A stretch of DNA of 64,000 bases from Terriglobia bacterium (GCA_965263045.1 CBDHGK010000022.1:4808-68807), one strand, 5' to 3'. Counted from the first letter of the stretch, positions 25,040 to 55,489 are shown. Notes: generated by a model from the sequence alone, not told the origin. A program made the numbers and translations.

Positions 25040-25297
25040 ATGGAACATGACAGATTCTATGTTCCGTATCTGTCAGATAAAATACCAGAAGCCGCATTCC
25101 ATCGTCAGGCCGTGAAAACCGTTGCCTATCTGCGGGTCTCGACCGCTCAGCAGGACGTGGGCAGCCAGCGCCTCGCCATCCTCGAGTACACACGCAAACA
25201 CAACTTCCGCATCGACGATTTCATCGAGGCGACCGCCTCTGGACAGGCTTCCGAAAAGCGCCGCCGACTCGACGAGCTGATGAACGTTCTCCAGTGA
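25040..25297 (+). pseudogene. Serine recombinase (resolvase) N-terminal catalytic fragment, 85 aa, ending at the left boundary of a 20.5-kb insertion
   Basis: VAYLRVSTAQQDVGSQRLAILEY...IEATASGQASEKRRRLDELMNVLQ carries the resolvase active-site Ser context (YxRVST). A stop follows where resolvases continue with GDxLVVxxLDRLGRS. That continuation is found at 45753..46205. Confidence 0.7.
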
Positions 25298-25790
25298 TTT
25301 CGATAACGTAAAAAGGCCCCCCAACGGGGTTCTGATCGAGGAAAAAGGCAACAAGGCCCTCTTGACCCTATCGGGAAGATCAGATGAAAATCCAATGCCA
25401 GATGCAACAGTCTGGGGTATGGGAATCACTATGTGGCACTCCGAAATCGGCTCCATCGTCGAAGACGACATCGGTAAAGACGCTTGGGCGACGTTCCAGA
25501 GCACGGCCGACGAGCGCTACGGCTACGCCGGCAGACTCAGGAAGAATGCCCTCCATATAGGAGCGAGCATGGCCTTCGCCTGGGAGGCGGGAAAGCGGTC
25601 AGCCAACCTAGAACGACTTTGTACCGAAATTCTGAGTGCAGACAATAGCGTGCCTGTCGGATGAGGGGTCACCATTCTCCGGATAGCGCTGGTACAAAAC
25701 TTCGGCCTGGTCAGTGCCGGACGTGAAGATCATTGCGAACATCGGATTGCATCTGCTCCGATGTCGTCGGTCTACTCGCTCAGTGACACT

Positions 25791-28604
25791 TCAGAACCCG
25801 TATTTTTCCTTCCTCAAATTGAAGGCCGCTTCGCCTCCCTCCATGATCTGCTTGATCGCATTCCGCACGGCGTCAACATCGATCGCCCCTTCTCCCCCTA
25901 TTGCGCCACGCGTCTGGTCTCCGGTTGTCCTATGAGTGCACCAGGCGACAAGTTCGGCATCGCCGTTCACTACAAGATTTGCATTGTGACTCGCGAATAC
26001 GAGTTGTCGCTTTTGCTTCGCCTCCCAGACCCCTTCAACAATTTCGAGCATAACGGGATTATCCAGATCCTCTTCTGGCTGGTCGATGATTAGCGGAGAT
26101 CCTGGCTGGTTCAACAGCGTTTTCAGAAGCGCGGTGGCCTGCTGGCCAGCCGAAGCATTCCGAAATGAGATGTACTCCTGTTCGCGAGCTTGATATTCAA
26201 ATACGGGCACACTTTCTACCGGCGTGAGTGACAGCGTCAGCCAGTCATCTGGTGTCAGGCTGCGGCCGATCCCGTCTAGATTCGCCGCTGTTAGGCCCAC
26301 CTTTGTTAACGTCGGCGCTTCAGGTCGCTTGTCAGCACCGTCCCGTTCTTCATCGAACTCGGCCAGTTTTTCCAGGTCAGTCAGCATGCGATTCCAGATG
26401 GCTTTCCCTGCTTCTACCGTACTCGTCGATGAAGCGATGTTGCCCAGGCTATCGATTTTATTGCCGGGTACGCGAGATCCACTCACAGCCCGCTTCATAC
26501 CTTCTATGAAGTTCTCCGCATCTGTATATCGTTCCACGCGCGCACGAATGGCCCCGCCTGAATCGGCTGTGAGCTTTTCGCATTGCGCGTCGAGGGCACC
26601 ATCGCGCTCGCTGATCAGGATTTCCCATGCCTCCCGTTCAGCACGATAGGTTCCATCGGCCATCTCAAGCGATCGCAACTCTTCCTTGACACGGCCGGTC
26701 TCACGGACATGCGCCTGCAATTGCTCCTCGATCGCTTTCAGTTGTTCCATTGTTTCCCGATGTGCGGATGAACGCTCTACAGCGGAGTCGTATGCCTTGC
26801 TGAACTCCGTCCGTCTCTCTACCCACTTTCGCCACGGGCTATTTTCATCTATCGTTTCTGGGGCGCCAATCATCGCCCCAGCGCGGCTAATAAGGGAATC
26901 GAGACTAGTCTTCGCATCGGAGAGCAGATCTATATATTCATCCGCAGCTTCCCTCAAGATGTCACCCGCAGGATCGGGCGGCGTCGGCTCCGCCCCCGAG
27001 AGATGTGACTCAACCGTCCTGCGTAGGCTCTCGGCATCATTCTTGAACGTGCTTACCCCGTCTCGCCACGATTCAACCGCCTGGTTCGCGGCAGAAAACA
27101 CCTTGCCCCTGTCGAGAAGCGCACGGTCTTCATCGGATAGCCCTGTCAGCCCTGCGCGTAACGTCTCAGCTTGCTCGAAGAACGACTTTTCAGCGAGTTG
27201 CCGTTCTTCAAGCATCCGGGAAAGCGCACGGCCCCGCCGCAGCGTTGCATATGCTTCCCTAATCCTCTTCGCTCTGTCAGCCAGACGCCCCTCAATGTCG
27301 TCCAGCGCCAGGCGGATCGGCGCTGTGATGAATCTTGAGAGTTCATCCACGCGGACGCTCACATCACTAAGTTGCTTCTGGCTGTATGCTTGAATGGGGA
27401 GCAGTCGACGCACTTCTTCCTCAGAGCACTCGCGCATCTCATCACCGGCAATCTTCATCATCAAATCGCCGTTCTGACTCTCCCTCCGCACCTTGTGTGG
27501 CACGCCGTTTATTTCAAACTGCACCTCTGCGGTGGCGTTCAATGGTTTAAGCGTCTCCTCGATGAGACGCTTCCGCCGTCCCAGATAATTCGGTGTGTCG
27601 TCTTTCTCCATACCCGGCGGCGGCTGATCGCATAATGCCCACCGCAGGTATTCGAGGATCGTTGATTTGCCCGTCCCGCGGCCTCCAATCAGCGCGCTGT
27701 ATTGCGAATTGAATTCAAGATCAAAAGGACCGAGAAATTTACTGTTGCTGACAGAAATGCTGCTGATCGTAACAGTCGGTAGTCGCGGTTCTTCCTGGGA
27801 AACCCGCGATTCCTGTGCGAGACATGCTTGCCGTAGCGCCTCGGCCGTCGGGGTCGCCCATTTTGTCCAGGTCGAAACACTTCCCAGCTCTTGATGATCT
27901 TCACGCCGGCTATCCGACGTTTGGAACACCGCAATTCGCTTATATCCGTAGTCTCGAGCCTTGCCATTTATGATGGCCAGATTACCCTTACCCAAATTCC
28001 CGATCGAGCCATCGATATACCCGCCGACGCATGGCATTGCCTTGTACTTTGGTCCGGCCCCTGCCCGAATGAGCGTATCTTTTCCGCCATCACTAACGTT
28101 AGGGAAGATGATGTATCGTCCCCGCAGAAACTGGTGTTTATCCAGCTCGTCACGAAGCCGCACAAGTGTCGTAATCTGCTCCAGACGTGCTACCTCAGCC
28201 GTTGTCGGTTCCGACTGGGCGTGTGGGGTTATCGCGAGGGCCGTCAGCGCCAGTGAGAAAAGGTCCTCAGGCAGTTCTGCATCAAAAATAAGTAACGCCT
28301 GACACGGAACGTTCAGCGTCAACTCTATGCCTGGAAAAACGACAATCTGATTCTCTGCCGGCACGGCGTGTCCGCTATCATCCAACTCCGTTTTCGCTGC
28401 GTCGCGAATGTACTTCGTGAACGCCATATCGTGATGATCTGTAATGGCAACAGCATCAAGCTCTTTCTCTCGACAGGCCTGGATGAACCTCGCTGCATAC
28501 TCGCTCCGGTCCTCATCGGAACCATAGTGCCTTCCTGACCACTGCAGGTCTCTCGGCGTATGTACCTGAAAATCACAGCGGAAAAAATGCGCTCCTTTAT
28601 CCAT
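25791..28604 (-). CDS. PHP-domain phosphoesterase fused to an SMC/Rad50/SbcC-like ABC ATPase with a long coiled coil (937 aa); candidate defense nuclease-ATPase
   Basis: N-terminus FRCDFQVHTPRD...AVAITDHHDM is PHP-like (motifs I/II). Walker A LIGGRGTGKST sits at aa ~306. More than 400 aa of heptad-rich coiled coil follow. The C-terminal signature region contains LIIDQPEEDLD (Walker B/D-loop) and LVFASHNANLV (H-loop), both diagnostic of Rad50/SMC-type ABC ATPases. Confidence 0.7.
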   Translation of the reverse strand: MDKGAHFFRCDFQVHTPRDLQWSGRHYGSDEDRSEYAARFIQACREKELDAVAITDHHDMAFTKYIRDAAKTELDDSGHAVPAENQIVVFPGIELTLNVPCQALLIFDAELPEDLFSLALTALAITPHAQSEPTTAEVARLEQITTLVRLRDELDKHQFLRGRYIIFPNVSDGGKDTLIRAGAGPKYKAMPCVGGYIDGSIGNLGKGNLAIINGKARDYGYKRIAVFQTSDSRREDHQELGSVSTWTKWATPTAEALRQACLAQESRVSQEEPRLPTVTISSISVSNSKFLGPFDLEFNSQYSALIGGRGTGKSTILEYLRWALCDQPPPGMEKDDTPNYLGRRKRLIEETLKPLNATAEVQFEINGVPHKVRRESQNGDLMMKIAGDEMRECSEEEVRRLLPIQAYSQKQLSDVSVRVDELSRFITAPIRLALDDIEGRLADRAKRIREAYATLRRGRALSRMLEERQLAEKSFFEQAETLRAGLTGLSDEDRALLDRGKVFSAANQAVESWRDGVSTFKNDAESLRRTVESHLSGAEPTPPDPAGDILREAADEYIDLLSDAKTSLDSLISRAGAMIGAPETIDENSPWRKWVERRTEFSKAYDSAVERSSAHRETMEQLKAIEEQLQAHVRETGRVKEELRSLEMADGTYRAEREAWEILISERDGALDAQCEKLTADSGGAIRARVERYTDAENFIEGMKRAVSGSRVPGNKIDSLGNIASSTSTVEAGKAIWNRMLTDLEKLAEFDEERDGADKRPEAPTLTKVGLTAANLDGIGRSLTPDDWLTLSLTPVESVPVFEYQAREQEYISFRNASAGQQATALLKTLLNQPGSPLIIDQPEEDLDNPVMLEIVEGVWEAKQKRQLVFASHNANLVVNGDAELVAWCTHRTTGDQTRGAIGGEGAIDVDAVRNAIKQIMEGGEAAFNLRKEKYGF

Positions 28605-29107
28605 CAGTACCTCATCACTCCGAATCGGCGCTTTTCAGGCCAAAGTTTCGCGCGTTCTCTGAAACAGCGCATTTCACAGCATCCTTGGCGCCGTTTCCAC
28701 AACTGTTTCCAGGGTAATCGAAAGCCGGTCATTTTCGCTAGAGAACCCGGCGGCTCCAGAAGCAACAATCCATGACGTAGCGTTGGCCAACGACCCCCAC
28801 AATGTCGTCAAACAATTCAATTTGGCAATGCCACTTCCTGGCATATGAGAAGCGGATACCCGATCCGGTTTCCGGCTAGTTGGCAGGAATCGTCGTGAAA
28901 ACCTGCCCTGTGTATCGGAGCCCAAGCGCCCCGAATCTTTCAGATTGTCGCGACTTGATTTCAACGATTCCGCTGACACCTGCTGGGAGATTTAGCAGCA
29001 GCAGCAACCCCTGTTCCGGCTGGTACGGGCGAAACGTCGTCGGCATCGCGTTCTCTTCCTAACTGCGAGACAATTATCTCTTTCACTTCCTACGGCGCAG
29101 ACTCCTA

Positions 29108-29336
29108 GTGGTGTCAGTAACGCTCGTCAACTATGATCCCAATAATTTATTACTAATATCGCTTGTACGCCTCATTCGGGACAGTACTGGCAAGGACTTG
29201 GCAGAGGCGAAAGAAATCCTTGACCGGTTTGTCGAAGGTAAACCGTGTACTCTCTACTTCAGCAGCCGACAGACTGCAGGCGAGTTCGTGGTCCGTGCTA
29301 TAAATCTTGGGGCAATCGTTAAAGGGGGTTCTGGTG
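29108..29336 (+). CDS. Small protein resembling the ribosomal L7/L12 C-terminal domain, 3' end truncated or fused by an IS6 insertion
   Basis: LISLVRLIRDSTGKDLAEAKEILDRFVEGKPCTLYFSSRQTAGEFVVRAINLGAIVKG follows the L7/L12 CTD pattern (V-R..TG..LKEAK.LV...P..........A.......LGA.V). The IS6 IR (ggttctggtgcaga) begins at 29337 inside the ORF. Confidence 0.35.
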
Positions 29337-30154
29337 CAGATAGGATTGTCGGAGCGATAAGATCAGGAGTACGCATTCGGCAATGCGGACTATGCGGCCA
29401 TCACGTGACACCAGATCAGGGCAGGATTCGACTGCCATGGGATCGGAATTGCGAACTGGCGTTTGTGAATTTTCTGCGCCAACTCGATGCCGATAATCAC
29501 GCGTCGCGCATTGTAGAACGTCTTGAATCCCAACATCGGGCGCAATCGCCCCTTCACCCGGCGGTGGTCCTGCTCCACAACGTTGTTCAGATACTGACAG
29601 CAACGAATCGTCACCATGTTCCGCCCCCGGAAGTTGAACTCACCGTTCATTCCCATGCGCCGCAGCGCGCTATGGCTCGGCTGGTGGCCATCCAAGGTGA
29701 TGCTGTGTGGTTCCCGATGATGCTTCAGTGCCTTGCGAAAGAAGGCCTTCGCCGCCGCGATGCCACGTGTTCGACTCAGTTAGAACTCCACGGTGTTGCC
29801 CTGTCCGTCCACGGCGCGGTAGAGATACATCCACTGGCCCCGCACCTTGATAAACGTTTCATCAACCCGCCAACTCCCACCCACCGGTCGCTCGAATCGG
29901 CGCCAGCGCTTTTCGCAGGTTTCGGCATAGCGAACGACCCAAAGCAAGATCGTGGTGTGCGAAATCGATAAACCCCGTTCACCTAAAATCTCAACCAGGT
30001 CCCGGTAACTCAGTTTGAATCGAAAATACCAGCGAAGGCAGAGGAGAATGATGTCGTCTTCGAACCAACGTCCGGCAAATAGGGGATTCCGTTTAGTTTT
30101 GCGATGCGCCATATCCCATTATCGCCAAGTCCCTTCGCTATCTGCACCAGAACC
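29337..30154 (-). mobile_element. IS6-family subtype A copy (818 bp) with perfect 14-bp IRs; transposase frameshifted
   Basis: IRs at 29337-29350 and 30141-30154. tnp fragments 29780..30112 (MAHRKTKRNPLFAGRWFEDDIILLCLRWYF...) and 29390..29695. Confidence 0.85.
29390..30112 (-). pseudogene. IS6 transposase, frameshifted
   Basis: Two ORFs in different frames jointly cover the transposase. Confidence 0.65.
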
Positions 30155-30203
30155 CCCTCTCTTAGTGCTCATCGGCGACGCTTTACGTCAGTATCGACTC
30201 GCT

Positions 30204-33200
30204 CTACCCCTCCCGTCGGAATCCCGGTGGTGGGGCCTTAAACTCCGTGTCCGGCGACTTCTTGCCCTGCCATTCCCAGGCTGACTGGTCGATTGCCTCT
30301 TTCACCCCCGTCTTCTGCGCCCGCAGCAATTCCTTGACCGGCAGCCGGACGTCCGCTGTCAACATCAGCTCCCCACCGCGAAGGCTCGCCAATTCCCGCG
30401 CGTGGGTCCGCCGCGGGGTCCAGAGGAACGATCCACCGTATCGACCGTGATTCACCGACGCCAGGTTGACGTAGTTCTCGTAGGCACGCACCCAAGTGAG
30501 AGAGTCGAACAGATCTACGTCTTTGTTGAACGCCACCATCAGCAGGTGCAGCAACTCGCCCCGTAGCGCCCTCCAGGGAGCTGCATCGATCAGGTCCGCA
30601 CAGATTGCCACGGTGAAGTCTCCCCACCCAGGGTGCACGAATCGATACCAGCGCCGGCCCCGTAGCATCCGCCACTTCGTCAGCGACGCCTTCTTCGATA
30701 GCGCCCGCGCCAGACCGTCCTCGGTGTGCGCTGGCACGGGCTTTCTGACACGGAAACACCGCACCCCCGGCGGTCCACGGTCATCTCCAACCGGCACAAT
30801 CAGCTCCGCCTCGTTCACGAAACACGCCCATGTCGGCGTGAATCCCCTTGGCGGACGAAAAGCAGGCCTCAGCGCACGCCAATAGAGCCCCGCGACCGCC
30901 CCCTTGCCCTCTTTCCGCACTAGGGCCCGCAGGCTCGTGACCTCCTGCTGGGGGATTGCCAATTCCGGTAGCACCACCAAACGCGGACCCTCATCTCCAA
31001 CGCCCTGTGCCGGTGCCAGGAACACATTGGAAACCTGTTCAATCATCGCATTTGCCGTGGCCGACGAAATCGCCGGGAATCGCGTCACGACATCTGCTTC
31101 GTTCGGCCATGCGGTCACTTGGCCGACGCGTACGACCAGTTCATCGATGATCGAAGTGTCCGCAACGCGCAATTCGGAAGGCAAATCTGGGCCCCGCAAA
31201 TCGCCCGCTGGGCGAATCGTCCTGACGACCTCAAGATCCCCTCCTGTAGACAAACCAACGTCGATCCTCTCCGGCAGGAAGTCCTCCCAAGAGACACGGT
31301 CGCACGACCAGTCAGCCAGCGACTCGACGAGATGAACTCCAGATCCTGTCACATCCGATCCTGGCGATTCGCTCCAGCGTAGGACCCCCTCAATCGACTC
31401 CCAAGCCTTGAACGGCAGGTGAATCCGAGACCGCCATGCCCATCGATCCACGAATGGCGTGCCCCTGACACCCCATCGTGCTAAACCGTCGAGAATTCGT
31501 TCGTTGCCGTCCAGCACCGTCAGCAGGAGCAGCACGTCGCAGTACAGGACATAGCTATCCACGTGTACTCCGCGCGCGGCCGCCGACACGAACGGCAGAT
31601 AGAACGCCGCGTGCGGCACCACTTCCCATGCCGTCGACCTTTCCATTGACAGCGATTGATCGACTCGTTCCGGTTCCTCATCCAGGTCGAATTGCCAGCG
31701 GCGACCCGCAGCCAAAACGCCGTTCACATCCTTGATCCGCCAAGTTAGCGGTCCCTCTCTCGGCGCCCACCCCTCCGGTACCGCTATCGTGCGGACGACT
31801 GTGAGCAGCGCTGCGGAAACGCGACTAGGTAGGCCTACCGCCGGGGTCTCCCATGCGGACATCGGCCAGTCTTTCAGCCCGGTGTCCACGGGCGTGCCCC
31901 ACAGGAGCCTGTGCACTGTCGGCGTACTCGTGGGACTCGCCTCCTGACCGACGATCACACGTCGTGCGCGGGCGTAGTCGTGCAGCAGGAACGCATCGTG
32001 CTCGAGTGCTTTTACATCCCGGTGCAGTGAGGGAATCGCTTTGCGCGCCAGCGCCGACGTGATCCACTCGAAGCAGCCAAGAGCAAGCCCCGCCGCCAAC
32101 GCTCCCCGCGCATTATCCCCAACCCGCGAAATGCGCGGTTGGCCGGACGCCGGGAATAGAACACCGCCCAACTTGTCATTCCAATGACCCAACTGCACGT
32201 TCGCCAGCGCCCAGTTGTCCAGATTCCGATTGCGCCTCGGCCCCGTATGCTGCAGCCTCCCGAAATTCGACAGAAGCCCGGTCGCCTTCGGCATTTCCTC
32301 AAGTTGTGCGGTCGACGGCACAAGCAATACCGATCCCGGCCCCGCGGTGCTCCGCCATGCCTCCGCGAGTTCCAACGTCGAGTGCGTCGCCAAGATCGCT
32401 TCGACAAACTCGTCCAGTTCCCACGGCCACGCGGTGATGTCTACAACGCTGGTCGCCGGATAGAGTATGCCCACCCATTGATCGATTCGGCCCAAAGACG
32501 CCGCCACCTGCGCGTGGTTCCCTTCCCCGGCGGCTCTCGTGGTCCAGAGAACCGGTGAAGCCACCCACATGTCCGCTTCCTCATGCGCCACCGGCTCGGC
32601 ATGCCGTTCCAATTCACGCACCACTTGCGCGAGCGCCCGCCAAAACGCCGCTCGGAGGAACGACAGATAGAGTTCCCGCCAACCGTCCGTCCGCTCGGTG
32701 GCGTGTCCGTCATCGGTATCTATCTCCGGCCACGCGCTCAGCCACGCCGCCGACTCTTGCCGGTCGCTCACGCAAGCGATTCGACGGAGCTGATTGCACA
32801 ACCACCTTGACGCCTCTTGAGCGGTATCGCTATTGTTCTCCGGCTCGCCAAGCGGGCGCCGCGCCGCGCCGCGAACTACCGCACGCCAGATCGCGAATTT
32901 CCATGGCGTCCGGTCCAGCACGAAACTGATCGTCTCTCGGATTTGGTGCAAGTTCCGGTGCTGCTCGCCGGCCTCCCGGGCCTTCGGCAACCAAGCACGA
33001 ACAAGCCGGTTGACGGAGAACGTGCGACGCGTATCCGGCCGCACCTGCTCGTCCTCAATGTCGAAGCGCGCCAGTTCGTGCAGTCGCGCCAGGTGATCCC
33101 GGGCACCCTCGCCGAACCGCTGGCGAAGGGTGTCCGTCCCCATGTCGCTCAACAGTTCGACCAGGCTCGTGACGAACGGACCGACGTCCCCTTGCTCGAT

Positions 33201-34631
33201 CGCCGCGCGCTCCAACGCCTCGCGGTGGGACGTGAATTCGTCGCTGCTCGACTTGACCGCCCACCAGTCCGACACCCCCCCGGTCGCGTGCACTCCCAGT
33301 GGCGGTGGCAACGGCTGTTTGCATTTCTCGTTTTCGCACTCGGTCCAACCATTCTCTAGGAGGTACTTGCCAATTACTGCCTGCACCGCATTCGGCTTGA
33401 TTTTCTTGAAACTTATGCAGATGTTTGAGCCCTCATTCGGGGTCGCAAGCGACGCCGCTCCGGTTCCCGATAATGCTCCGTGAACGGCTTCGACGAGGGA
33501 AAATAGGCCACCTAACGATCTCGACAACACGTACATGTCGTCTGCAAACCTGACTATGGCCCCTCGATCCTTCCCTGAGGTCCCTGCGAGATAACGCCCG
33601 ATCACTCGATCCGGCTCCAGGAGTACCACATTGAGCAACACCCCGGAGATGGCTAGCCCTGTAGGTATCCCTTCGTATGGCTCCACGGCTACCCTTGGCA
33701 ACGGGTGACCCTGTGGAGGTCCCCAGGAATCCAGGGGGATTCCACAGGGGTCCAGCGTGACTTCCCCCAAGGCTTTCGTCAGCCGGCGTCCAATTTCCAC
33801 CCGAACATCCTCGACGGCAAGCGCTTCCAATACCGGTTTCGGACAACCGTCAAACAGCCCATTGAAGTCGACCGACTGCCGGAGCGCGTCTTCCATTGCC
33901 ACGGCCAAACGCTCGATGCGCACCGATGGGTACGCCAATTCGATATCCAAGGCCCCCCAGCGCGCGCGTGGCGAGTCGACTGGTCCTTGCCACCAAGCCT
34001 CTCCCGTCCACTTCGGAAGCGTGTCTTCCCCATAGTCCTCGGGAATCTGTACAGGATCCGAGTCGTTGTCCGCTGGCAGCGTCGCTTTCGTCATCCGAGC
34101 CACGGTCCAATGCGCCACGCGCCGAAACAACCCATGCGATCGAGCGTATGAAAGGAAGATTCTGTCCGTGAGCACCGGATATGGACGGTGCACCCACCGT
34201 GCCGGTTTTGCCCGACGATCCCAGGCGATTGGCCGATACCACCGATTCCCGAAGGCGAAGTTCGCAACCTGTACATCGAGGATCGGCCCCACCGCGACCA
34301 TGTGGGCCATGAACGCCACTTGGTCCCGCACCGTCGGCATCACGTAGTGCCTCAGCCGCGCACCCTTCTTCGGGTAGGGCACCTGACGCCATCGTTCCGG
34401 CTTCCAGTTGCCGTCGCGCAACGCCGTCGCCAGATCTCGAAGCATCGCATCGGGGTACAGCCTCCATCGCGATAGTTCCGGCTGCGGCGCCAGATTCCCA
34501 CCTCTGTACCAGGAATCCACACGCATCCAAGCACCCTGAAGGATCACCGGATTCCCAAGCACCTCCGCTGCCTTCTGTGCGTTGTGTTCCGAGTTCATGC
34601 GTCCATTCGGCCTCTGCCCCTCCGTAGGCAC
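30204..34631 (-). CDS. Reverse transcriptase-nitrilase fusion protein (1475 aa); defense-associated RT of the DRT type 1 / UG1-UG5 kind
   Basis: The N-terminal ~400 aa hold RT motifs. These are RLYPDAMLRDLATALRDGNW...VPYPKKGARLRHYVMPTVRDQVAFMAH (motifs 1-2), YEGIPTGLAISGVLLNVVLLEPDRVI (motifs A-B), and RFADDMYVLS (a YxDD-type catalytic box with F in place of Y). The C-terminal ~270 aa carry the carbon-nitrogen hydrolase catalytic triad context: LVVLPELAIP (Glu), FRVRKPVPAHTEDG (Lys) and FTVAICADLIDAAPW (Cys). About 750 aa of unassigned sequence lie between. Confidence 0.75.
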   Translation of the reverse strand: MPTEGQRPNGRMNSEHNAQKAAEVLGNPVILQGAWMRVDSWYRGGNLAPQPELSRWRLYPDAMLRDLATALRDGNWKPERWRQVPYPKKGARLRHYVMPTVRDQVAFMAHMVAVGPILDVQVANFAFGNRWYRPIAWDRRAKPARWVHRPYPVLTDRIFLSYARSHGLFRRVAHWTVARMTKATLPADNDSDPVQIPEDYGEDTLPKWTGEAWWQGPVDSPRARWGALDIELAYPSVRIERLAVAMEDALRQSVDFNGLFDGCPKPVLEALAVEDVRVEIGRRLTKALGEVTLDPCGIPLDSWGPPQGHPLPRVAVEPYEGIPTGLAISGVLLNVVLLEPDRVIGRYLAGTSGKDRGAIVRFADDMYVLSRSLGGLFSLVEAVHGALSGTGAASLATPNEGSNICISFKKIKPNAVQAVIGKYLLENGWTECENEKCKQPLPPPLGVHATGGVSDWWAVKSSSDEFTSHREALERAAIEQGDVGPFVTSLVELLSDMGTDTLRQRFGEGARDHLARLHELARFDIEDEQVRPDTRRTFSVNRLVRAWLPKAREAGEQHRNLHQIRETISFVLDRTPWKFAIWRAVVRGAARRPLGEPENNSDTAQEASRWLCNQLRRIACVSDRQESAAWLSAWPEIDTDDGHATERTDGWRELYLSFLRAAFWRALAQVVRELERHAEPVAHEEADMWVASPVLWTTRAAGEGNHAQVAASLGRIDQWVGILYPATSVVDITAWPWELDEFVEAILATHSTLELAEAWRSTAGPGSVLLVPSTAQLEEMPKATGLLSNFGRLQHTGPRRNRNLDNWALANVQLGHWNDKLGGVLFPASGQPRISRVGDNARGALAAGLALGCFEWITSALARKAIPSLHRDVKALEHDAFLLHDYARARRVIVGQEASPTSTPTVHRLLWGTPVDTGLKDWPMSAWETPAVGLPSRVSAALLTVVRTIAVPEGWAPREGPLTWRIKDVNGVLAAGRRWQFDLDEEPERVDQSLSMERSTAWEVVPHAAFYLPFVSAAARGVHVDSYVLYCDVLLLLTVLDGNERILDGLARWGVRGTPFVDRWAWRSRIHLPFKAWESIEGVLRWSESPGSDVTGSGVHLVESLADWSCDRVSWEDFLPERIDVGLSTGGDLEVVRTIRPAGDLRGPDLPSELRVADTSIIDELVVRVGQVTAWPNEADVVTRFPAISSATANAMIEQVSNVFLAPAQGVGDEGPRLVVLPELAIPQQEVTSLRALVRKEGKGAVAGLYWRALRPAFRPPRGFTPTWACFVNEAELIVPVGDDRGPPGVRCFRVRKPVPAHTEDGLARALSKKASLTKWRMLRGRRWYRFVHPGWGDFTVAICADLIDAAPWRALRGELLHLLMVAFNKDVDLFDSLTWVRAYENYVNLASVNHGRYGGSFLWTPRRTHARELASLRGGELMLTADVRLPVKELLRAQKTGVKEAIDQSAWEWQGKKSPDTEFKAPPPGFRREG

Positions 34632-34896
34632 TTCCGGCGCACGTCAAACCATTCGCCAGAGCGCGCGACTCAGTTTACGGCTGCGCGTCCTTCTCGATTG
34701 ATCTGTTTCACCAAGGTCAGTCGCTTGACTTCGGTCTCTCCGGGCCGGTGGGGATGGCCGCTCCTCGAGTACACGCATGCGAAGTTGCGAACCGTGACCA
34801 GTTTTCCAGGGAGTCCATGGGTGCGCTGAAGACATCCGGAGAGTACCAGAATCTTCGTATCTCGGGCCTCCCGGTCAAGCGACTCTGCCGCCGTCT

Positions 34897-35142
34897 CTAC
34901 TTCGGGTGCGCGATGATAGTGTGGAGGACGTAGTCGTCCCCTTCGATGGTGAAATAAAAACGCCAAGATCGATTGACCCTGGCTTGCCACAAGCCCGTGG
35001 ACTCGTCGTATTTCTTGGCGTGCAGCGACGGATGCTGAAGGTTGTCGGCGAGGAACCGCTCCTGCTTGTCGAATGCGCGCTGCACATCGGCCGGCGCGGC
35101 TGAATAGTCTTTCTCGAACCTGGCGGTGTGAATGAGCCGCAT
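34897..35142 (-). CDS. RelE/ParE-family type II toxin (81 aa)
   Basis: MRLIHTARFEKDYSAAPADVQRAFDKQERFLADNLQHPSLHAKKY...WQARVNRSWRFYFTIEGDDYVLHTIIAHPK follows the RelE/ParE fold pattern. The start abuts the upstream antitoxin stop. Confidence 0.65.
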   Translation of the reverse strand: MRLIHTARFEKDYSAAPADVQRAFDKQERFLADNLQHPSLHAKKYDESTGLWQARVNRSWRFYFTIEGDDYVLHTIIAHPK

Positions 35143-35454: not shown

Positions 35455-35509
35455 ATATTTGTATATTACAACTAGAGCGGGCGTCGGTCAACTAATGTGC
35501 CTGATCGAG

Positions 35510-35879: not shown

Positions 35880-36256
35880 CCCTGGATGCAGCCGTAGCTG
35901 CGGCGTACGGTTGGGCGGCGTACGTTTCCAACGACGAAGTTCTGCGCGAGTTGTTGGCGCTCAACAGAGGTGGAACCTGAGCCACTGGAAGAATCGGTTG
36001 TATCAAGGCCGACTGGGCACTCGCCCCCGCAGGCCTGTCGTCATGCCCTGAGAGGCGGAATCTGGCGGTGAACTTTCGAGGGAGAAGCAGAGCAACCGGA
36101 CGCATGCTTCGACGACGGATCCGGACGCGCGGATGCATCGGAAGAGCCAGGGAGTGGAGACGAAGATGGCCCGGGCCATTGGCAAAGGCGGAGTCCGTCG
36201 CCTGACGGCTCCGCCCTCCGTCCGCTGTCCCATTGCTCTGTCGGCATTGGCGGTCG

Positions 36257-37441: not shown

Positions 37442-37614
37442 GCGAACCCAATCCCTTCTCCCTCAAATGCTCGCCGTTTGAAGCTGTCCCGGGTTCAGTT
37501 GAAACCTTCGATGCGCGTTGTTGCCTGGACCGAGGCGGAGATGGAATTCGCCTCGATTCATGTAACAACGCTGGGCAAACTCAACAATCCTATCTGCACC
37601 AGAACCCATTAAAT

Positions 37615-37929
37615 GTTTGGGTCTTCCGCAGAATTTGTGGGTAAAACCGTCTTCCATCGCCGATTGAGGAGACCACGGTGCTCGCCAAGCCTCAAGGCTT
37701 CCCTCGCAAGCTCGGCGGCTGCGCCGGCCTTGACCCTCGGCTGCGCTCCGCGGTGTCGGCTGGTGTGGGCGATGGGGAACGGGGCCTCCGGCGGGGGCTC
37801 CGGGCACCGGGTGTAGGCGTCCGACCGAAGTGGGTACTGGAATATTCGCCGTCGAACAAAAGAATAAGGTACTTTGTTTCAATTACTTATGTGCGCACAG
37901 GCCTTTGGACTGCCCACAAATTCTGCGGA
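37615..37929 (-). mobile_element. MITE copy A (about 305-315 bp, perfect 17-bp TIR TCCGCAGAATTTGTGGG), inserted in the 3' end of the IS30 transposase gene
   Basis: Same unit as 47363..47667 and 48425..48729 but in inverted orientation. The internal sequence is GC-rich and palindromic. It supplies the C-terminal tail SSAEFVGSPKACAHISN to the IS30 transposase ORF. Confidence 0.75.
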
Positions 37930-39100
37930 GGAGGCAAATGTTTCTGCCGGAGTTGCGAACTCCAGCGTCTTGCGTGGCCGCTCGTTGAGTTGCCGAGCAA
38001 CCGCGTCCAAATGTTCCTGTGAGTGTACCGACAGATTCGTCCTTTTGGGAAAGTAGTATCGAAGCAGACCATTGGTGTTCTCATTCGATCCGCGCTGCCA
38101 TGGACTCCGTGGGTCGCAGAAATAGACGGCAATGTTTGTCGCCAAGGTAAACCGCCTGTGATCCGTCATTTCCAGACCGCGATCCCAGGTCAGTGATTTG
38201 TAGAGTTCCGTCGGTAGTGGATGCGCCTGTTCGATGAACGCGTTGACAACAGTTTCGGTCTTCTTGTTGGGAACCTTCGCCAGCATCACATAACGCGAGT
38301 GACGTTCGACCAGAGTGGCGATGTAGGTGTGCCTCGATCCGGCGATCAGATCCCCTTCCCAGTGACCGGGGATCGCACGATCTTCGACTGAAGCCGGGCG
38401 CTCACGGATCGAGATCATGGATTCGATCTGTCCCTTTCCATGGCCTTTCCGGCTCGCTTTTCCAGATCGGCGAATCGTGCGTCTTGTCCGCAGATACTGA
38501 GTCAGTTCTTTCTTCAAAACCCCGCGGGCCTGGACAAAAAGGCTGCGATAGATCGTCTCGTGGGACACGTGAAGCGACTCGTTTTCCGGAATATGAGTGT
38601 TTCAGCCAACCGGCGATTTGCTCGGGCGACCAGACCTGCCGCAGCTTCTCTTCAACAAGCTGCCGTAAGCGGGGACTGCGGGCTAACCGGCACGACTTCG
38701 GACGGCGCGCCCGCTCCCAGGTCCGCTCATCGGCTTCCGATGCCCGATAGCTATCAGATCCCCCATTTCGGCTGACCTCCCGGCTCACCGTCGATGGCGA
38801 CCGACCCAGTCGCACGGCAATCGAACGGATCGATTCTTTGGCCGCAATACCTCTGGAGATCTCTTCACGTTCGACCAGAGTCAGTGCCCGCGATGACCGG
38901 CAACGGGACTGCGGACGGATGCCCCCGTACACGGCCAGTTGACGATGAATCGCCGGTCCCCCTCTGTCCAGCACGCGTCCGATTGATTGGGACGACTCCC
39001 CCCGCTGCCAGCGATCCCACACCTCGACCCGCTCGGTCGCTGTGAACCATAGCCGCTTCCTCATCCGCTTGTTCTTTCGTTTCTTGCCCATACACTTCAC
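37879..39100 (-). pseudogene. IS30-family transposase, frameshifted (N-terminal HTH part 38402..39100, DDE core 37930..38568) with a MITE-derived 3' tail
   Basis: DDE core ...IPGHWEGDLIAGSRHTYIATLVERHSRYVML...LTWDRGLEMTDH...YFCDPRSPWQRGSNENTNGLLRYYFPK is IS30-like. The upstream ORF has an HTH region. The two ORFs overlap in different frames. Confidence 0.7.
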
Positions 39101-39704
39101 CTCTCTTCTTATGTGAAGTGTTGCATCGACCCCTTGAAATCACCTCCTTTATCGTTCATATGGAATGAGCAAGGAGATACGCCGCTATGATGAAGACGTC
39201 CGGGAAGATCGAGAAGGGATTGCCTGAGACCACGATGTCCGGGACGCTGCTTGACCTTGATTTCCCACGCTCGTGGCCAGTTGAGTTGCTTGGCTACCTC
39301 ATTGAGCACCACGATTTGTTCCGAGGGTGGGTCAACGGGCAAGGTCAGGTCTCCGCTAAAGCCCACGACGAGGTCGTGCGCGGGCTAAGGCGTGCCTTGC
39401 AGCCATATCAAATATTGGGCTGGCATTGCACGCGCCTTACTTGAGTGCGCCCTTCCGACTGGAGACTTTTCCCAAAAGTTTAGTACAGAATTATCGGCAT
39501 AGAGCGACGGCCTGAAACGAGTGGAATGAGAGCCCGCCGTCGAGGCTGTGGAAAATGTGGTAAAGCAGAGCGTTTTTTGCGAGGCTTTTCCAAACGGCTG
39601 TGGGAATCCGTGTTGTTTACGGATTTCCATCAGACGTGGCATTTTCCACAGCCTCTCGCGCGAGTCGTTTTTGGGCCGGTCGCAAAGGACACCGATATTC
39701 GAAA

Positions 39705-40061
39705 TGGGAAAAATCCGTCGAAAGTTCGAACCCGAATTCAAACGCCAGATGGTCGAACAGGTCGAGACCGGGCAAGTAACGATGGCCCAGGCCGCACGCG
39801 AGTATCAAATTTCGCGAAGCCTGATCGAACGGTGGCGAAAACAGTATCGCAGCAACGTCAGCGCTCTGGCAGACCAGCCGTCCCGACAGGAGCGCCAATT
39901 GGAAGCCGAGAACGAGAAGCTGAAGGCGAAGATCGGCGACCTGGTCATGCAAATCGAACACCTAAAAAAACTGCAAGTTTGGGTTCGACAGCGGAAAAGC
40001 GCCAATACGTCCGCGATCACCTCGAACAACTTGGATCAGTTTCGAAAGCGTGCCAAGTGAC
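39705..40061 (+). CDS. IS3-family OrfA (HTH plus leucine-zipper transposase subunit)
   Basis: MGKIRRKFEPEFKRQMVEQVETGQVTMAQAAREYQISRSLIERWRKQYR...ENEKLKAKIGDLVMQIEHLKK is a classic IS3 OrfA. Confidence 0.7.
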
Positions 40062-40807
40062 CGGCTTGGCGCCCAGCAGCTACTACTACAAGCCGGACCG
40101 ATCGGACCGGCAGCGGCGTGAAGCCGAGGATGAGAAACTGCGTCTCCAGATCGACGACATTCATGCTGAATTCCCGGGTTACGGCTACCGTCGCATCGTG
40201 CGGGAACTGGACCGTCGTGGCATCCAGGTCAACGCCAAACGTGTTCGCCGCGTAATGGGCAAGTACGATCTCGGACCCATCGTTTGGCGTGCGTTCATAC
40301 GGACCACCGATTCGAAACACCAACTACCGATCTATCCGAATCTGATCAAGAATCGGAAGGTTCGTGCACTCAACGAAGTGTGGGTCGCCGACATCACTTA
40401 CATCCGGATTCGCTCCAGCTTCGTCTATCTGGCGGCGATTCTGGATCTGTATTCTCGCAGGATCGTCGGTTGGGCGATCTCCAAGCGGATCGACAGCGCC
40501 CTGTGCGTCGCCGCTCTTCGCATGGCTCTCGACTCTCGGCGGCCTGGTCCCGACTGCATTCACCACTCAGACCGCGGCAGCCAGTACGCTTCGGCCGACT
40601 ATGTCGACCTACTCGGTGAACACGGGGTCCAGATCAGCATGTCTGCCAAGGGCAATCCCTACGACAATGCATTCATCGAGTCGTTCTACAAGACTCTCAA
40701 ATACGAGGAGGTTCACTTATGGAACTATGAAACCTACGACGACGTGATCGAAAGGCTTCCCTTCTTCATCGAGGAAGTGAACCGCCCCGGGTTTCCCGGA
40801 GACCGTT

Positions 40808-42048
<1,241 letters not shown>

Positions 42049-42254
42049 CTTCTCAAGTAATGGAGTCTCCGGGAAACCCGGGGCGGTTCAAAGTCTATAA
42101 CTTCAAGCGCCTTCACTCCTCTATCGGCTACGTTCCGCCGAATGAGTTTGAAGACGCTCTTGTGAACATGAAACCCGCTGATCGGCCTGTACTAATCCTA
42201 GGGAAATAACTCTCCAGTTCACGGGGCGCACTCCATACAGATGCCGAGGCAGAG

Positions 42255-42803
42255 GTGATTCGGCGCAAGGGCATGCAGCTACCCGACGCCGAGATGCTTG
42301 CGAGCCGCATTGACGCCCTCGTGAAAACTAGCCTGATCACGCCCGACATTGCGCGGCGTCTCAAGTCCGAGAATAGAGTTAGTGAACAGTCCCGCGCCGT
42401 CTACTTCTGCTTCTTTCCTCCGCGAAACGCTGACGAGGACGGGATCGGTCGATTCTTTCGTCACTGGGGTGGCGAGGCATTATACGTTTGCCACGAGGAC
42501 GATTCGATCACGTCACCTGCCATTAGCTGCGTTGGTACGCCATGCATCGTTGAAGCTGACGTTCCAATCTCGCTACTTCGGATGGAGGGAAACCTCGAAC
42601 CCAGCATCTACCGCAGGTACTTGGCTAGTCGTGGCGCTCCCATAAATTACTACGATTACGAGGACCGTATCGAGCATCCGCTACCAGCAAAGAGCGTGAG
42701 GCGTGTTATTGCCTTTCCAGACCCGGATTTCTATTCCCTTACGGGCTGTTCTGAGTGGCGCAGGCCGATCTCACAGTGCCGAGCAAATACTGAGAGTGCC
42801 TGA
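42255..42803 (+). CDS. Hypothetical protein (182 aa)
   Basis: ORF only; no recognisable motifs. Confidence 0.3.
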   Translation: MIRRKGMQLPDAEMLASRIDALVKTSLITPDIARRLKSENRVSEQSRAVYFCFFPPRNADEDGIGRFFRHWGGEALYVCHEDDSITSPAISCVGTPCIVEADVPISLLRMEGNLEPSIYRRYLASRGAPINYYDYEDRIEHPLPAKSVRRVIAFPDPDFYSLTGCSEWRRPISQCRANTESA

Positions 42804-43509
42804 ATGCGATCGGGTGTCGCAAAAGGCCCGTGACCCCGTAGAATTGCAACAACGACTTGTGCGACAGGGTTTTACAACGCAATCCGCGGCCGGATCCGGG
42901 GTCGTGAGCCTTCCCCATTACTTGTCGCGAAACCGACCGGTTTTACGACGGTCACGCTCACGGCCTTGGCGTGCACAATCGCGCCGATCTGACTGATACC
43001 CTTGTGTCGCCGTCGCGCGCGAAGGGGCGCGCCCTTTCCAGTTTCGGACGCTGCGTGGTCTTACCTGAAGCCGTGTCGGTAAAAGAGCCGATCGACCGGG
43101 ACATGCTCGAGTTGGCGTTCCGGGTTCTGGTCGAAGCTGCTCACCCGGACGTAGCCGATGCGTTGACCGTGCAAGGTATCCTCTTGAATCTAATCTGTCA
43201 GAAAGAAATCTGTGACCCTTGACGGTATATGTCAATCAATTCAAGGGAGGACTCTATCCTGACGCCACTGCGCTGCCTTCCCTGACAACAGGTTAGGGTG
43301 TACTCCAACCCGACACCTTCCTGCCGCCCCCAAATTTCCTTAGCGTACGATTTTCCCCGTTTCGTGAGGTGACCCCAGCTACCGGTTTGAGCGCGGCCGT
43401 CGGAACGAAAAAGAATGGCGAACTGGTCCTGCTGCCATTCTCGGCCCCGTCAATCCCTCCCCTAAAAACTCCTCACGTAAGCCCAAGCTCGGGAGTTAAC
43501 CTTTGTGGT

Positions 43510-45576
43510 TTACCGTCCGCAGTCCTGGTAGCTTGAGGCCATGCACGCCCGCGCCCAGTCAGTCGCGCGGCGGATCTCGGTGCGGGTCATGTCCCGTTCT
43601 ACGGTGGCCCGCCAATCCATAGCGTCTACGTGTCCTTTGCCGGCGGCGACGTAGAACCACATGTATGCGAGCACGGAATCCTTGACGACCCCTAGAGCAT
43701 TGGCGTACATGAACCCGAGATTGTATTGCGCGCTGGCAATGCCCTGCGCGGCGGCCAAGCGATACCAGAGAGCGGCTTCGGCAGCGTCCTTGCTCACGCC
43801 ACGCCCGTTGGCATAATGGACGCCGAGGTTGTACTGCGCGCCGGCGTGGCCCTGTTCGGCCGCCAAGCGGAACCAGCGTACGCCTTCGGCAAAGTCCTGT
43901 GGCACACCTCGGCCCTCGTTATACATGCCCGCGAGGTTATACTGCGCAACGGCGTCTCCTTGATCGGCCGCCAAGCGATACCAGCGCACGGCTTCGGTAG
44001 CGTTCTCAATGACGCCATCCCCAAAATCGTAACTGATCCCGAGGTTGTACTGCGCAACGGCGTGGCCCTGTTCGGCCGCCAAGCGGAACCAGCGCACGGC
44101 TTCGGCGTCGTCGGGGGGAACACCTCGGCCCGCATCATACATGGTCCCGAGGTTGTACTGCGCGGGGTCGTGGCCTTGATCGGCCGCCAAACGGAACCAT
44201 CGCATGGCTTCGGCAAAGTCCTCTGGCACACCTCGGCCCGCAGCATACATGACACCAAGGTCGGACTGGGCGCCGGCATGGCCCTGTTCGGCCGCCAAGC
44301 AGAACCAGCGCATGGCTTCGGCGTCGTCGGGTGGAATACCTCGGCCCGAGAAATATATGAAGCCGAGGTTGTACTGCGCCTCGGCGTCACCTTGTTCAGC
44401 GGCTTCCCTGACTGCGTCGAGATTCTCCGGTTCATCTTGCGCTACGCTCTCACCCGTGTCGTACATCGAGCCAAGGTCGGACTGCGCCTTGGCGTCACCC
44501 TGGTCAGCGGCCAAGCGGCCAATGGCGGCCTGCGCAACCGCTAATCCCAGGTCAGCGGCTAAGCGGAGCCACCGGACTGCGTCCGCTTCACCTTGTTCAG
44601 CGGCCAAGCCGAACCACCGGGTGGCCTCGACGTCATCCTCCACCACGCCCCAGCCCGCGGCGTACATCGCGCCGAGGTTAGTCTGCGCAACCGCTAATCC
44701 CTGGTCAGCGGCCAAGCGGTACCACCGGACTGCCTCAACGTCATCCTTCGACACACCCCGGCCGTCGAGGTACATCCCTCCGAGGTTAGTCTGCGCAGCC
44801 GCTAATCCCTGCTCAGCGGCTAAGCTGTACCACCGGACAGCCTCCGCGTCATCCTCCGCCACGCCCCGGCCATTGGCGTACGCCACGCCAAGGTTGTACT
44901 GCGCCAACGCGCGGCCCTGTTCTGCGGCCAAGCTGTGCCACCGGATAGCTTCAGCGTCATCTTGCGGCACGCCTATGCCCTCGAGGTACATCCCTCCGAG
45001 CGCTTGTTGTCCCTCCGCGTTACCTTGTTCTGCGGCCAAGCTGTACCACCGGACGGCCTCCGCGTCATCCTCCGCCACGCCTATGCCCTCGAGGTACCTC
45101 AAGCCAAGAGCGGTCTGTGCGGCCGCGATGCCCTGTTCTGCGGCTAAGCTGTACCACCGGACAGCCTCCGCGTCATCCTCCGCCACGCCCCGGCCATTGG
45201 CGTACGCCACGCCAAGGTTGTACTGCGCTGCCGCGATGCCTTGTTCTGCGGCCAAGCTGTACCACCGGACGGCCTCCGTGTCATCCTCCGCCACGCCTCG
45301 GCCATTGGCGTACATCACGCCAAGAGCGGTCTGCGCGACCGCGTGCCCCTGTTCTCCAGCCCGGAGGAACCACCGGACAGCCTCAACGTCGTCTTGCGGC
45401 ACACCATCGCCGACGAGGTACATTACCCCGAGCGCTTCCTGGGCAACCGCATCACCGCCTTCTGCCTGTACGCGCAACCGTGTAGTCTCAGTGTCCTGCC
45501 CCGACAGATTTCCAACCAAGACGAATACGGACAACAGTAGAGCCAGCAGACGAATGTTCGCGTTTCGGTTAGCCAT
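43510..45576 (-). CDS. Secreted Sel1-repeat protein, about 688 aa, roughly 16 Sel1 repeats
   Basis: Signal/TM segment MANRNANIRLLALLLSVFVLVGNLSGQ followed by many AxxWYxLAAEQGxAxAQxxLGxMYxxGxGVxxDDxEA units. Confidence 0.8.
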   Translation of the reverse strand: MANRNANIRLLALLLSVFVLVGNLSGQDTETTRLRVQAEGGDAVAQEALGVMYLVGDGVPQDDVEAVRWFLRAGEQGHAVAQTALGVMYANGRGVAEDDTEAVRWYSLAAEQGIAAAQYNLGVAYANGRGVAEDDAEAVRWYSLAAEQGIAAAQTALGLRYLEGIGVAEDDAEAVRWYSLAAEQGNAEGQQALGGMYLEGIGVPQDDAEAIRWHSLAAEQGRALAQYNLGVAYANGRGVAEDDAEAVRWYSLAAEQGLAAAQTNLGGMYLDGRGVSKDDVEAVRWYRLAADQGLAVAQTNLGAMYAAGWGVVEDDVEATRWFGLAAEQGEADAVRWLRLAADLGLAVAQAAIGRLAADQGDAKAQSDLGSMYDTGESVAQDEPENLDAVREAAEQGDAEAQYNLGFIYFSGRGIPPDDAEAMRWFCLAAEQGHAGAQSDLGVMYAAGRGVPEDFAEAMRWFRLAADQGHDPAQYNLGTMYDAGRGVPPDDAEAVRWFRLAAEQGHAVAQYNLGISYDFGDGVIENATEAVRWYRLAADQGDAVAQYNLAGMYNEGRGVPQDFAEGVRWFRLAAEQGHAGAQYNLGVHYANGRGVSKDAAEAALWYRLAAAQGIASAQYNLGFMYANALGVVKDSVLAYMWFYVAAGKGHVDAMDWRATVERDMTRTEIRRATDWARACMASSYQDCGR

Positions 45577-45630
45577 GTGGATCAATCTCCCCTTCTCCGC
45601 CATTGGTTGTCACAAATCTCACAGACCTTG

Positions 45631-45650
45631 CTAGGAGTCTGCGCCGTAGA
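45631..45650. mobile_element. Solo IS1182-type terminal IR
   Basis: ctaggagtctgcgccgtaga matches the IRs at 58899 and 60436 and the truncated copy at 22490. Confidence 0.6.
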
Positions 45651-45752
45651 AAAAACCCGGCACTACATATCGACGCTAAGCGCCGTATACTCACAACATA
45701 CCGCGGCCATAATGGCCTAAAAGCGTTCTACCGCGCAGGCTCATAGGAGCTG

Positions 45753-46205
45753 ACCAATCTACCGAACTATGGATCAGCCGTATATCCCCTCTCCCGGCTT
45801 GGTCGGTCGCTGGGTCAGATCGTCGCCATCCTCGACACCCTCAGCAAGGCAGGCGTCACCTTCGTGGCGATGAAGGAGAACATCCGCATCGAGGGCAAGC
45901 GCGATATCCAGACGAAAGTCATGACCACCCTCTTCGCGCTGTTCGCCGAGGTCGAGCGCGACCTGATCTCCGAGCGCACCCGCGAGGGCCTCGCCAAGGC
46001 CAGGGCCTCGGGCCGGAAGCTCGGGCGCCCGAAGGGCTCGTTGGGCGTCTCACGGCTCAACGGCAAGGAGGACGCCATCCGGCGCTTCCTCGAGCTGGGC
46101 CTTTCCAAGACCGCCATCGCCAAGCTCACGGGCGTGTCCCGTACGACCCTTTACAGCTTCATAAGCACCCGAGGGCTCAAGCCGAGCCCTTACGTGTATT
46201 TCTGA
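45753..46205 (+). pseudogene. Serine recombinase (resolvase) C-terminal fragment: end of the catalytic domain, E-helix and HTH
   Basis: In-frame translation from 45753 reads ...AVYPLSRLGRSLGQIVAILDTLSKAGVTFVAMKENIRIEG...LFALFAEVERDLISERTREGLAKARASGRKLGRPKG...LSKTAIAKLTGVSRTTLYSFI. This is the resolvase region from the LDRLGRS motif through the C-terminal HTH. It has no start codon of its own. Confidence 0.7.
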
Positions 46206-46312
46206 ACGAATCTGGTCGGCACCCTTACAGCAACCTGCCGAGCCTCTTGCTAACCTAGTGTAGTCCGTCTCAATTAACGTAACTTATTTAGCTTTCCTAC
46301 GTCTGAGTATAT

Positions 46313-55475: not shown

Positions 55476-55489
55476 GGAAGAACCTAACA

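Follow-up and report, generated by a model that had tools for sequence, protein, structure and literature searches.

How does a serine resolvase gene come to lie in two pieces some 20.5 kb apart, with defence genes and insertion sequences (ISs) between them? The question arises in a 64,000-nucleotide stretch of a Terriglobia bacterium (GCA_965263045.1, CBDHGK010000022.1:4808-68807; hereafter the window, with positions counted from its first letter), where the initial annotation, made from the sequence alone, had read the arrangement as a plasmid-backbone resolvase gene used as an integration hotspot. We conclude that both pieces are inactive remains of one kind of gene, the left and right parts of a tnpR, and that this tnpR is the resolvase gene of a non-autonomous Tn3-family element of ~1 kb. 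Our account of the locus as a whole, to which we assign a probability of about 0.65, is the ordinary decay of a mini-Tn3 tnpR in an IS-riddled plasmid, with exchange at the resolution site (res) of the element and IS traffic.

The N-terminal piece (25040-25294) and the C-terminal piece (45789-46205) lie on the same strand and in N-to-C order, and tblastn found no other serine-recombinase coding fragment in the window. They match complementary parts of the 145-position Pfam Resolvase profile (positions 2-59, E = 1.9e-10, and 69-144, E = 3e-18), the C piece having an HTH_7 match as well (E = 1.1e-5). The N remnant bears AYLRVSTAQQ, the serine-nucleophile YxRVST motif of small serine recombinases (PF00239), and the C remnant aligns with Gin and gamma-delta resolvase through the helix-turn-helix. 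Translation of the N-piece open reading frame (ORF; 25040-25297) ends ...RRRLDELMNVLQ*, and the second open frame, running to 46205, reads ...LSRLGRSLGQIV.... A search with the joined pieces returned full-length homologs (P0001-P0015, 228-259 aa) that cover both at 85-89% identity; in alignment to them nine residues, RGDRLVVSE, are absent between NVLQ and LSRLGR. At the DNA level ~15 intact copies align to the window from 24907 or 24967 up to 25294 and pick up again at 45789-46226, with exactly 27 bp (cgcggcgaccgtttggtcgtcagcgaa, profile positions 60-68) gone between the pieces. The lost codons specify a conserved strand of the catalytic domain, whose counterpart in Gin is KGDTLVVWK. No uninterrupted tnpR frame with a complete catalytic domain was found in the window, and because the 27 bp are missing the two pieces cannot make a functional protein. 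The first reading of the pieces as N- and C-terminal parts of a resolvase, covering different regions of full-length proteins without overlap and with the C piece in frame, thus stands; it had put the gap at ~7 rather than nine residues, and resolvase homology on the right begins at 45789 rather than 45753, the in-frame codons ahead of it (ELTNLPNYGSAVYP) being unrelated to resolvase. The true start is probably GTG 25112, not ATG 25040, because many homologs are 204 aa long; the first 24 'codons' from ATG 25040 overlie the candidate res site. DNA identity is 87-93% between the N remnant and ~40 loci, all stopping at 25294, and 93-95.5% between the C remnant and intact copies.

The gene belongs to a short mobile unit. 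In all loci the conserved DNA begins ~100-200 bp before the start codon and stops 21 bp after the tnpR stop of the window, the flanks being locus-specific, and the layout of a complete unit is inverted repeat (IR), res, tnpR, IR, in ~1,020 bp. The 3' boundary of homology is sharp in ~15 loci, terminating ...ACGAATCTGGTCGGTACCC; read inward this end is GGGTACCGACCAGATTCGTG..AAATACACGCTAAGG, with the tnpR stop codon inside. A 38-bp repeat, GGGTACCGACCAGATTCGTG..ACACGCTAAGG, bounds elements of ~1,020 bp in L008 and L010 and one of 992 bp in L005 on either side, and it resembles the terminal repeats of the Tn3 family, whose internal end we take to be ACGCTAAG. The complete elements (L008 9700-10719, L010 3286-4306, L005 9728-10719) each consist only of a res region and a 204-aa tnpR between two Tn3-type IRs, the second of which overlies the stop codon. 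This is the plan of TIME-RES, a Tn3-derived inverted-repeat miniature element carrying only res and tnpR (Szuplewska et al. 2014, PMC4133298). The present element is a new, Acidobacteriota-specific member of that known kind, of which the window holds a remnant and not a complete copy: the right repeat (IRR) is there, and the left one is absent anywhere in the window.

The family is present in metagenome-assembled genomes of Terriglobia, Bryobacterales and Vicinamibacterales, often with several copies per genome, and also in ENA soil assemblies; in Acidobacteriota, whole as well as broken copies are numerous on both plasmids and chromosomes. About 30 of 50 genome loci are partial, and the N piece alone matched at least 120 proteins, all truncated among the matches listed. 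Among solved structures, Gin invertase and gamma-delta/Tn3 resolvase come closest (E = 8e-17 to 3e-12). The best proteins in PLSDB, generic 'recombinase family protein' entries, reach ~45% identity, and a PLSDB megablast with both flanks gave no match. In homolog P0053 tnpR is preceded by, and fused to, the C-terminus of a Tn3 transposase, the sole hint that the element might be mobilised in trans by a transposase of the Tn3 family. A third remnant of the family, left arm and res start with no coding part, lies at 8275-8448 of the window (89-93% identity to L033, L042, L035 and L137).

To the left, the gene adjoins plasmid backbone with a VirB1-like SLT transglycosylase gene, whose protein is 93-94% identical to genes on related contigs. 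Three contigs sharing this block (L123, L125 and L126, two of them with names ending in _c, which we read as the assembler's flag for circular) carry RepA_C and ParA, and in L127 the block adjoins VirB8/TrbL/TraG genes. Since the window itself encodes ParA and a VirB1-like SLT protein, and its relatives carry RepA_C, ParA and type IV secretion system genes, a plasmid-type replicon, as initially annotated, is supported. When JGI metagenomes were scanned for the SLT protein, the best hit reached 66% and none of the hits had a resolvase beside it, and an exact-protein look-up of the SLT ORF with its TTG start found nothing on record.

One related contig, L131, shows where the variable DNA begins. 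Its SLT protein is identical to that of the window, and it runs collinear with window 14152-25243 (99.4% identity), with no mismatches over 24500-24983 and ~12% divergence from 24984 on; 13 other loci start their homology to the window exactly at 24967. This boundary lies ~140 bp upstream of the start codon, where res site I lies in Tn3 and would be expected here, and we infer that 24967-24984 holds the res crossover. The tnpR of L131 is another allele, broken near codon 68, where by our reading it is joined to the interior of an IS30-transposase-like coding sequence; there is no C piece within 9.6 kb. Beyond the break come SIR2 (PADLOC, E = 1.9e-128) and HerA (E = 7.5e-136), then a PD-(D/E)xK protein and a UvrD-type helicase, and between the broken tnpR and the SIR2-HerA pair (L131 10754-15041) we noted an IS30-like fragment, so read, and an IS3 fragment. 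The window-specific segment, judged against relatives, is 24984-42811, and its left limit is the candidate res crossover, upstream of tnpR, and not the gene break.

At the gene break on the left, tnpR gives way to the exact terminus of an IS. Homology to tnpR stops at 25294, and from 25295 the sequence (TGATTTCGATAACGTAAAA...) matches, from base 1, a terminus of a repeat element present in L024, L049 and L018; the complete 2.5-kb element of L024 (13903-16396) encodes IstA (Mu-transpos_C_2, E = 2.8e-19) and IstB (IstB_IS21, E = 1.4e-72). The junction reads CTCCAGTGATTTCGATAACG, and the TGA at 25295-25297, the first three bases of the IS21-family end, serves as the stop of the N remnant. An IS21-family element inserted cleanly between tnpR codons 85 and 86 and was later lost except for ~54 bp, beyond which we found no match to it, neither istA/istB nor a second end. 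Exact-protein look-ups of the N remnant in its 85-aa and 61-aa forms found nothing on record, and exact junction 20-mers were absent from viral contigs. The complete IS21-family element at 52748-55669 was rejected as the source of the solo end, its own ends being unrelated. That element (IstA 53772-55475, IstB within 53147-54073) has repeat-rich ends and is not at this site in L128 and L135.

The right junction is different in kind. Toward the C remnant the order is the start of a Sel1-repeat gene (45603), a 118-bp miniature inverted-repeat transposable element (MITE; 45631-45748), 40 bp, and the remnant itself from 45789. All of this lies in a block, 42812-46258, that six related contigs of four samples (L128, L129/L136, L132, L133, L134 and L135) share collinearly at 97.7-99.4%; three of them are named _c (71, 91 and 47.6 kb), and in all six the truncated C piece is 99.5-99.8% identical. 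Three other contigs have a recorded Sel1 protein identical to this one, and records of the exact C-remnant protein likewise exist for other contigs. The junction is not an IS end. Because the six share it together with the adjoining 3 kb (Sel1 gene, small ORF and MITE), it is old, and because the conserved block includes Sel1, that gene is backbone and not recent cargo. We rejected the 40 bp as the other end of the IS21 element, and direct reading showed no Tn3 IR motif in it either. Also rejected was a deletion from an arrangement like that of L001, 'Sel1 - 65 bp - tnpR', the intergenic sequences being unrelated (score 37 against 35.5 +/- 7.4 for shuffles). The terminal repeat of the 118-bp MITE recurs on the IS at 58896-60457.

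At its left edge the block is bounded by a second breakpoint: all six contigs part from the window exactly at 42812, and 14 bp past that point they begin a Hin/Gin-like recombinase gene (MMLIGYARVSTQDQ...; L132 6360-7013, L128 12806-13375) that the window is without. As a test of a site-specific origin we looked for a second copy of the sequence at this breakpoint and found none. The contigs of two relatives end ~166 bp beyond it, within the Hin/Gin-like gene, which may reflect structural variation there. At the right edge, 46258 is joined directly to 47733 in L128, L132 and L135.

In the history that we propose, both remnants would come from one tnpR copy that formerly had the SLT backbone on one side and the DUF2971 gene on the other; replicons would have exchanged the arm right of res by resolvase-mediated res x res recombination, and IS insertions, deletions and the second breakpoint at 42812 would afterwards have reshaped that arm. 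Descent of the two remnants from a single copy is on balance probable, because the window has a single N and a single C fragment, which share a strand, follow each other in order, leave a gap of 27 bp and do not overlap, and because in L024, a related Terriglobia genome, tnpR codons 65-228 run uninterrupted across the break of the window into the same downstream flank as that of the C remnant (IRR, 32 bp, DUF2971 gene). The nearest intact copy for the N half, L001, is also among the nearest for the C half. Several observations weigh against this history. An intact tnpR flanked by the SLT block and the DUF2971 gene, which would be the 'empty site' that the initial annotation had proposed to look for, was seen in no related contig, and the N junction was found in no other assembly checked. 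The junctions differ in kind and apparently in age (an IS21 end on one side, an old non-IS junction on the other), and since no one element has them as its two ends, descent from one copy would still require two or more events with endpoints 27 bp apart, which weakens the geometric argument. Distances of the N and C halves to 15 intact copies (ratio 1.35 vs 1.24, correlation 0.66 vs 0.65 for intact genes) did not discriminate, nor did a comparison of the N alleles of the window and L131 with 21 copies or rare-residue linkage in 240 homologs speak for or against co-ancestry. The candidate res site is placed by recombination boundaries and inverted repeats. Matching 5-bp target duplications were absent from the flanks of the L008, L010, L005 and L003 elements; this would be expected if arms were exchanged at res and is therefore not decisive.

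A substantial possibility, although not the one we favour, is that the remnants derive from two mini-Tn3 copies, the C remnant being an old backbone orphan and the N remnant having arrived on an arm swapped at res, with their complementarity a coincidence. Several further points favour two copies and count against one: the commonness of tnpR fragments noted above; the presence of breaks nearby in other loci (codon 93 in L020, codon 85 in L023, and codons 79-89 in several N fragments); and the position of the N remnant on an arm that differs from that of L131. Separate truncated loci in related replicons, which would speak for independent origins, were found in part: the C junction occurs in six contigs with no N piece in the upstream flank examined (0.2-12 kb, depending on the contig), and the L131 N locus has no C piece nearby, as described. 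The 71-kb _c contig (L128 and L137, 36 kb examined) has a single N-type fragment, which shares codons with the C piece and runs on the other strand. Against two copies, the strand, order, 27-bp gap and lack of overlap of the only two fragments in 64 kb would have a chance of a few percent, by a rough estimate, had the breaks been independent, and in the distance comparisons the two halves, joined together, behave as an intact gene does. The original view, that a plasmid resolvase gene was an integration hotspot and that the whole 20.5 kb, Sel1 included, was gathered between its halves as secondary cargo, agrees with the complementarity of the halves and with the IS and defence DNA, missing in relatives, that makes up much of the interval, but we now think it improbable. 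The right 3 kb of the interval are conserved backbone in the six contigs, where the C piece is already truncated, so the 20.5 kb are not one body of inserted cargo; variation begins at the res boundary (24984), upstream of the gene and not inside it; the resolvase is no backbone gene but the tnpR of a mobile, multi-copy ~1-kb mini-Tn3 with a Tn3-type IR over its stop codon; and there is no target duplication, 27 bp having been lost instead. A hotspot would have different cargo between the same two flanks; the left flank is common to L131 (with SIR2-HerA), the right flank to six contigs with other neighbours, and both flanks together were seen in no relative. We give even less credence to an assembly chimera that joined, through repeats, N and C pieces from different molecules: repeats abound here (IS6, IS3 and MITEs, 90-100% identical), the DNA apparently comes from a metagenome assembly and the N junction turned up in no other contig, but neither junction falls within a long repeat, independent assemblies match both the left 11 kb and the right 20 kb collinearly at 99.4%, and the right junction is confirmed six times. 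A programmed split gene rejoined by excision, in the manner of the skin or nifD elements, is a reading we practically discount, although the halves do lie on the same strand and in order, for neither side has the 27 bp of a conserved catalytic strand, and the interval has no flanking repeats and no recombinase gene within.

The DNA between the IS21 end and 42812 is a mosaic of defence genes and ISs (Table 1). The content given in the initial annotation was largely recovered: the PHP-ATPase, RT-nitrilase, AbrB antitoxin, AlbA_2 protein, IS30, two IS3 elements, Sel1 gene (15 repeats), MITE and IS1182-type end are there, but two IS6 copies were found (one decayed, one partial) instead of three, and the RelE partner of the antitoxin had no Pfam hit. 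Repeat analysis agreed that no single IR pair bounds the interval, which was built in several events. Secondary acquisition of the defence cargo holds insofar as most defence genes are absent from the closest relatives; Sel1, as conserved backbone, is the part to be withdrawn. GC content does not set the interval apart, and an exact-protein look-up of the Ppl-like protein found nothing on record. The stretch between the IS21 end and the Ppl-like gene (25349-25790), which holds the 100-aa orphan ORF, looks like the 3' end of a truncated gene; neither Pfam nor PADLOC recognised it, and nothing in the loci retrieved matched it.

Table 1. Features of the tnpR locus and its surroundings, in window coordinates
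Feature	Position	Strand	Evidence and remarks
Plasmid backbone block with VirB1-like SLT transglycosylase gene (24152-24820)	23956..24922	+	96.8% over 967 bp to L123/L125/L126; 95.8% to L127
Candidate res site of tnpR module	24967..25111	+	putative crossover within 24967-24984; 28-bp palindromic subsite TGACAGAT-N12-ATCTGTCA at 25048-25075
tnpR N-terminal remnant	25112..25294	+	codons 1-61 of 204-aa form; Pfam Resolvase 2-59; ORF from ATG 25040 in earlier reading
Solo left end (IRL) of IS21-family element	25295..25348	+	87.5% to L024 terminus from base 1; also L049, L018
Window-specific mosaic of defence genes and ISs	25349..42811	.	Pfam/PADLOC hits, repeats; absent from L128, L131-L135 except IS copies
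Orphan ORF	25362-25664		100 aa
Ppl-like PHP-ATPase	25791-28604	-	PADLOC Ppl, 4e-39
IS1182-type end	28995-29111		
Decayed IS6	29320-30158		
RT-nitrilase, DRT type	30204-34631	-	PADLOC, 7e-36
MazE/AbrB-type antitoxin	35143-35454	-	
Partial IS6	35516-35883		
AlbA_2 protein	36257-37441	-	
MITE	37610-37948		~330 bp
IS30	37936-39100	-	
IS3	39526-40815	+	
IS3	40778-42090	-	99.8% identical to IS3 in L128 and L135
ORF	42255-42803		
Conserved backbone block	42812..46258	.	upstream region of lost Hin/Gin-like recombinase gene, 83-aa ORF, Sel1, MITE, 40 bp, tnpR C remnant, IRR, 32-bp flank
Sel1-repeat protein gene (697 aa)	43510..45603	-	Pfam Sel1, 15 repeats, E = 7.7e-153
Complete ~118-bp MITE	45631..45748	+	IS1182-type terminal repeats (CTAGGAGTCTGCGC...GCGCAGGCTCATAG); end-to-end alignment with L027, L035
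40 bp abutting C remnant (right junction)	45749..45788	.	present in the six relatives only, 97.5%
tnpR C-terminal remnant	45789..46205	+	codon 95 of 228-aa form (LSRLGR...) to stop; Pfam Resolvase 69-144 and HTH_7
Tn3-type terminal inverted repeat (IRR) of mini-element	46187..46224	-	overlaps tnpR stop; inter-locus homology ends sharply; same repeat at both ends of ~1.0-kb elements in L008, L010, L005
IS630-family insertion	46259..47732	+	DDE_3 transposase; missing at this site in all relatives

Set beside known systems, the element is closest to TIME-RES, being likewise non-autonomous, with Tn3-type terminal repeats around a resolvase gene and res alone, in the same layout in the complete L008 and L010 copies. 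The TnpR of TIME-RES, however, has 309 aa and comes from Tn5563 in Pseudomonas (PMC4133298), whereas ours has 204 aa, belongs to uncultured Acidobacteriota and is at most ~45% identical to PLSDB proteins; moreover, the window copy is split, dead and without its left repeat, and mobility of the family is putative. As in Tn3 and gamma-delta resolvases, a small serine recombinase has an N-terminal catalytic domain and a C-terminal helix-turn-helix, but identity is low, the LDRLGR motif reads LSRLGR, the res subsites, three in Tn3 and gamma-delta, are putative here, and the complete ~1-kb copies have no linked transposase gene. Mosaic Tn3-family transposons and plasmids formed by res x res recombination are known, for example in the Tn21 group and as Tn1/Tn2/Tn3 hybrids. 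The window resembles them in its sharp switch, at one res point, from identity to ~12% divergence with a different arm beyond; it differs in that the exchanged arm carries anti-phage defence instead of resistance genes and the resolvase gene is already broken. The link to the IS21 family is the left junction, where tnpR meets the precise end of an element with a complete relative that encodes IstA and IstB, although only 54 bp are left in the window and the target duplication is not recoverable. Mobile DNA gathered at or near resolvase and res loci also recalls the res-site hunter transposons, that is, the Tn5053/Tn402 family (mentioned in PMC7765201); here, however, the junctions are an IS21 end and an unclassified 40 bp, and we noticed no tni genes or Tn402-type ends among the annotated ORFs, without a dedicated search.

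The split gene itself is an inactive scar and little informative, and the locus serves better as a worked example of how to read such scars, that is, of telling which junctions are old and which DNA is truly accessory. TIME-RES-like mini-Tn3 elements are abundant and heavily fragmented in uncultured soil Acidobacteriota, and here the anti-phage genes that come directly after the same candidate res boundary differ between two near-identical plasmid backbones. We suggest, tentatively and with doubt prevailing, that the ~1-kb IR-res-tnpR-IR elements may act as portable res sites by which Acidobacteriota plasmids swap whole defence arms. The window (Ppl, RT-nitrilase, AlbA_2) and L131 (SIR2-HerA, UvrD/PD-(D/E)xK) would then be, in a reading just as speculative, an example caught in the act, and the broken tnpR genes its scars. 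Were arm exchange at res general, it would provide one route for defence genes between plasmids in a poorly studied phylum.

Other features of the window were noted in passing. A MITE-like repeat of 320-330 bp is present in three copies (37610-37948, 47348-47677 and 48407-48743; 98-99.7% identical), two of which flank the DUF2971 / PDC-S31 gene at 47764-48480, with 98-100% identical copies in L018, L128 and L137. The DUF2971 gene (47733-48418) is 79% identical to its L024 counterpart (10558-11210), with 93-96% identity in the DNA on both sides, a contrast that points to replacement of the allele or to rapid evolution of the gene, a defence candidate. Further right, an AAA_11/AAA_12 helicase gene with a DUF559 nuclease domain (57727-58893 and 60271-62439) is split by an IS1182-family element (58896-60457; 440-aa transposase) and is intact in L128 and L135 (899-1051 aa). 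The HNH-domain ORF at 50339-51394 has 351 aa in the window and 147 aa as called in L128 (6331-6774), L129 and L136, where it is abutted by an IS3 99.8% identical to window 40778-42090 and ~1.2 kb is missing. Finally, window 1-866 and 14635-15500 form an 866-bp direct duplicate (99.3% identity) that includes Sel1-like repeats.

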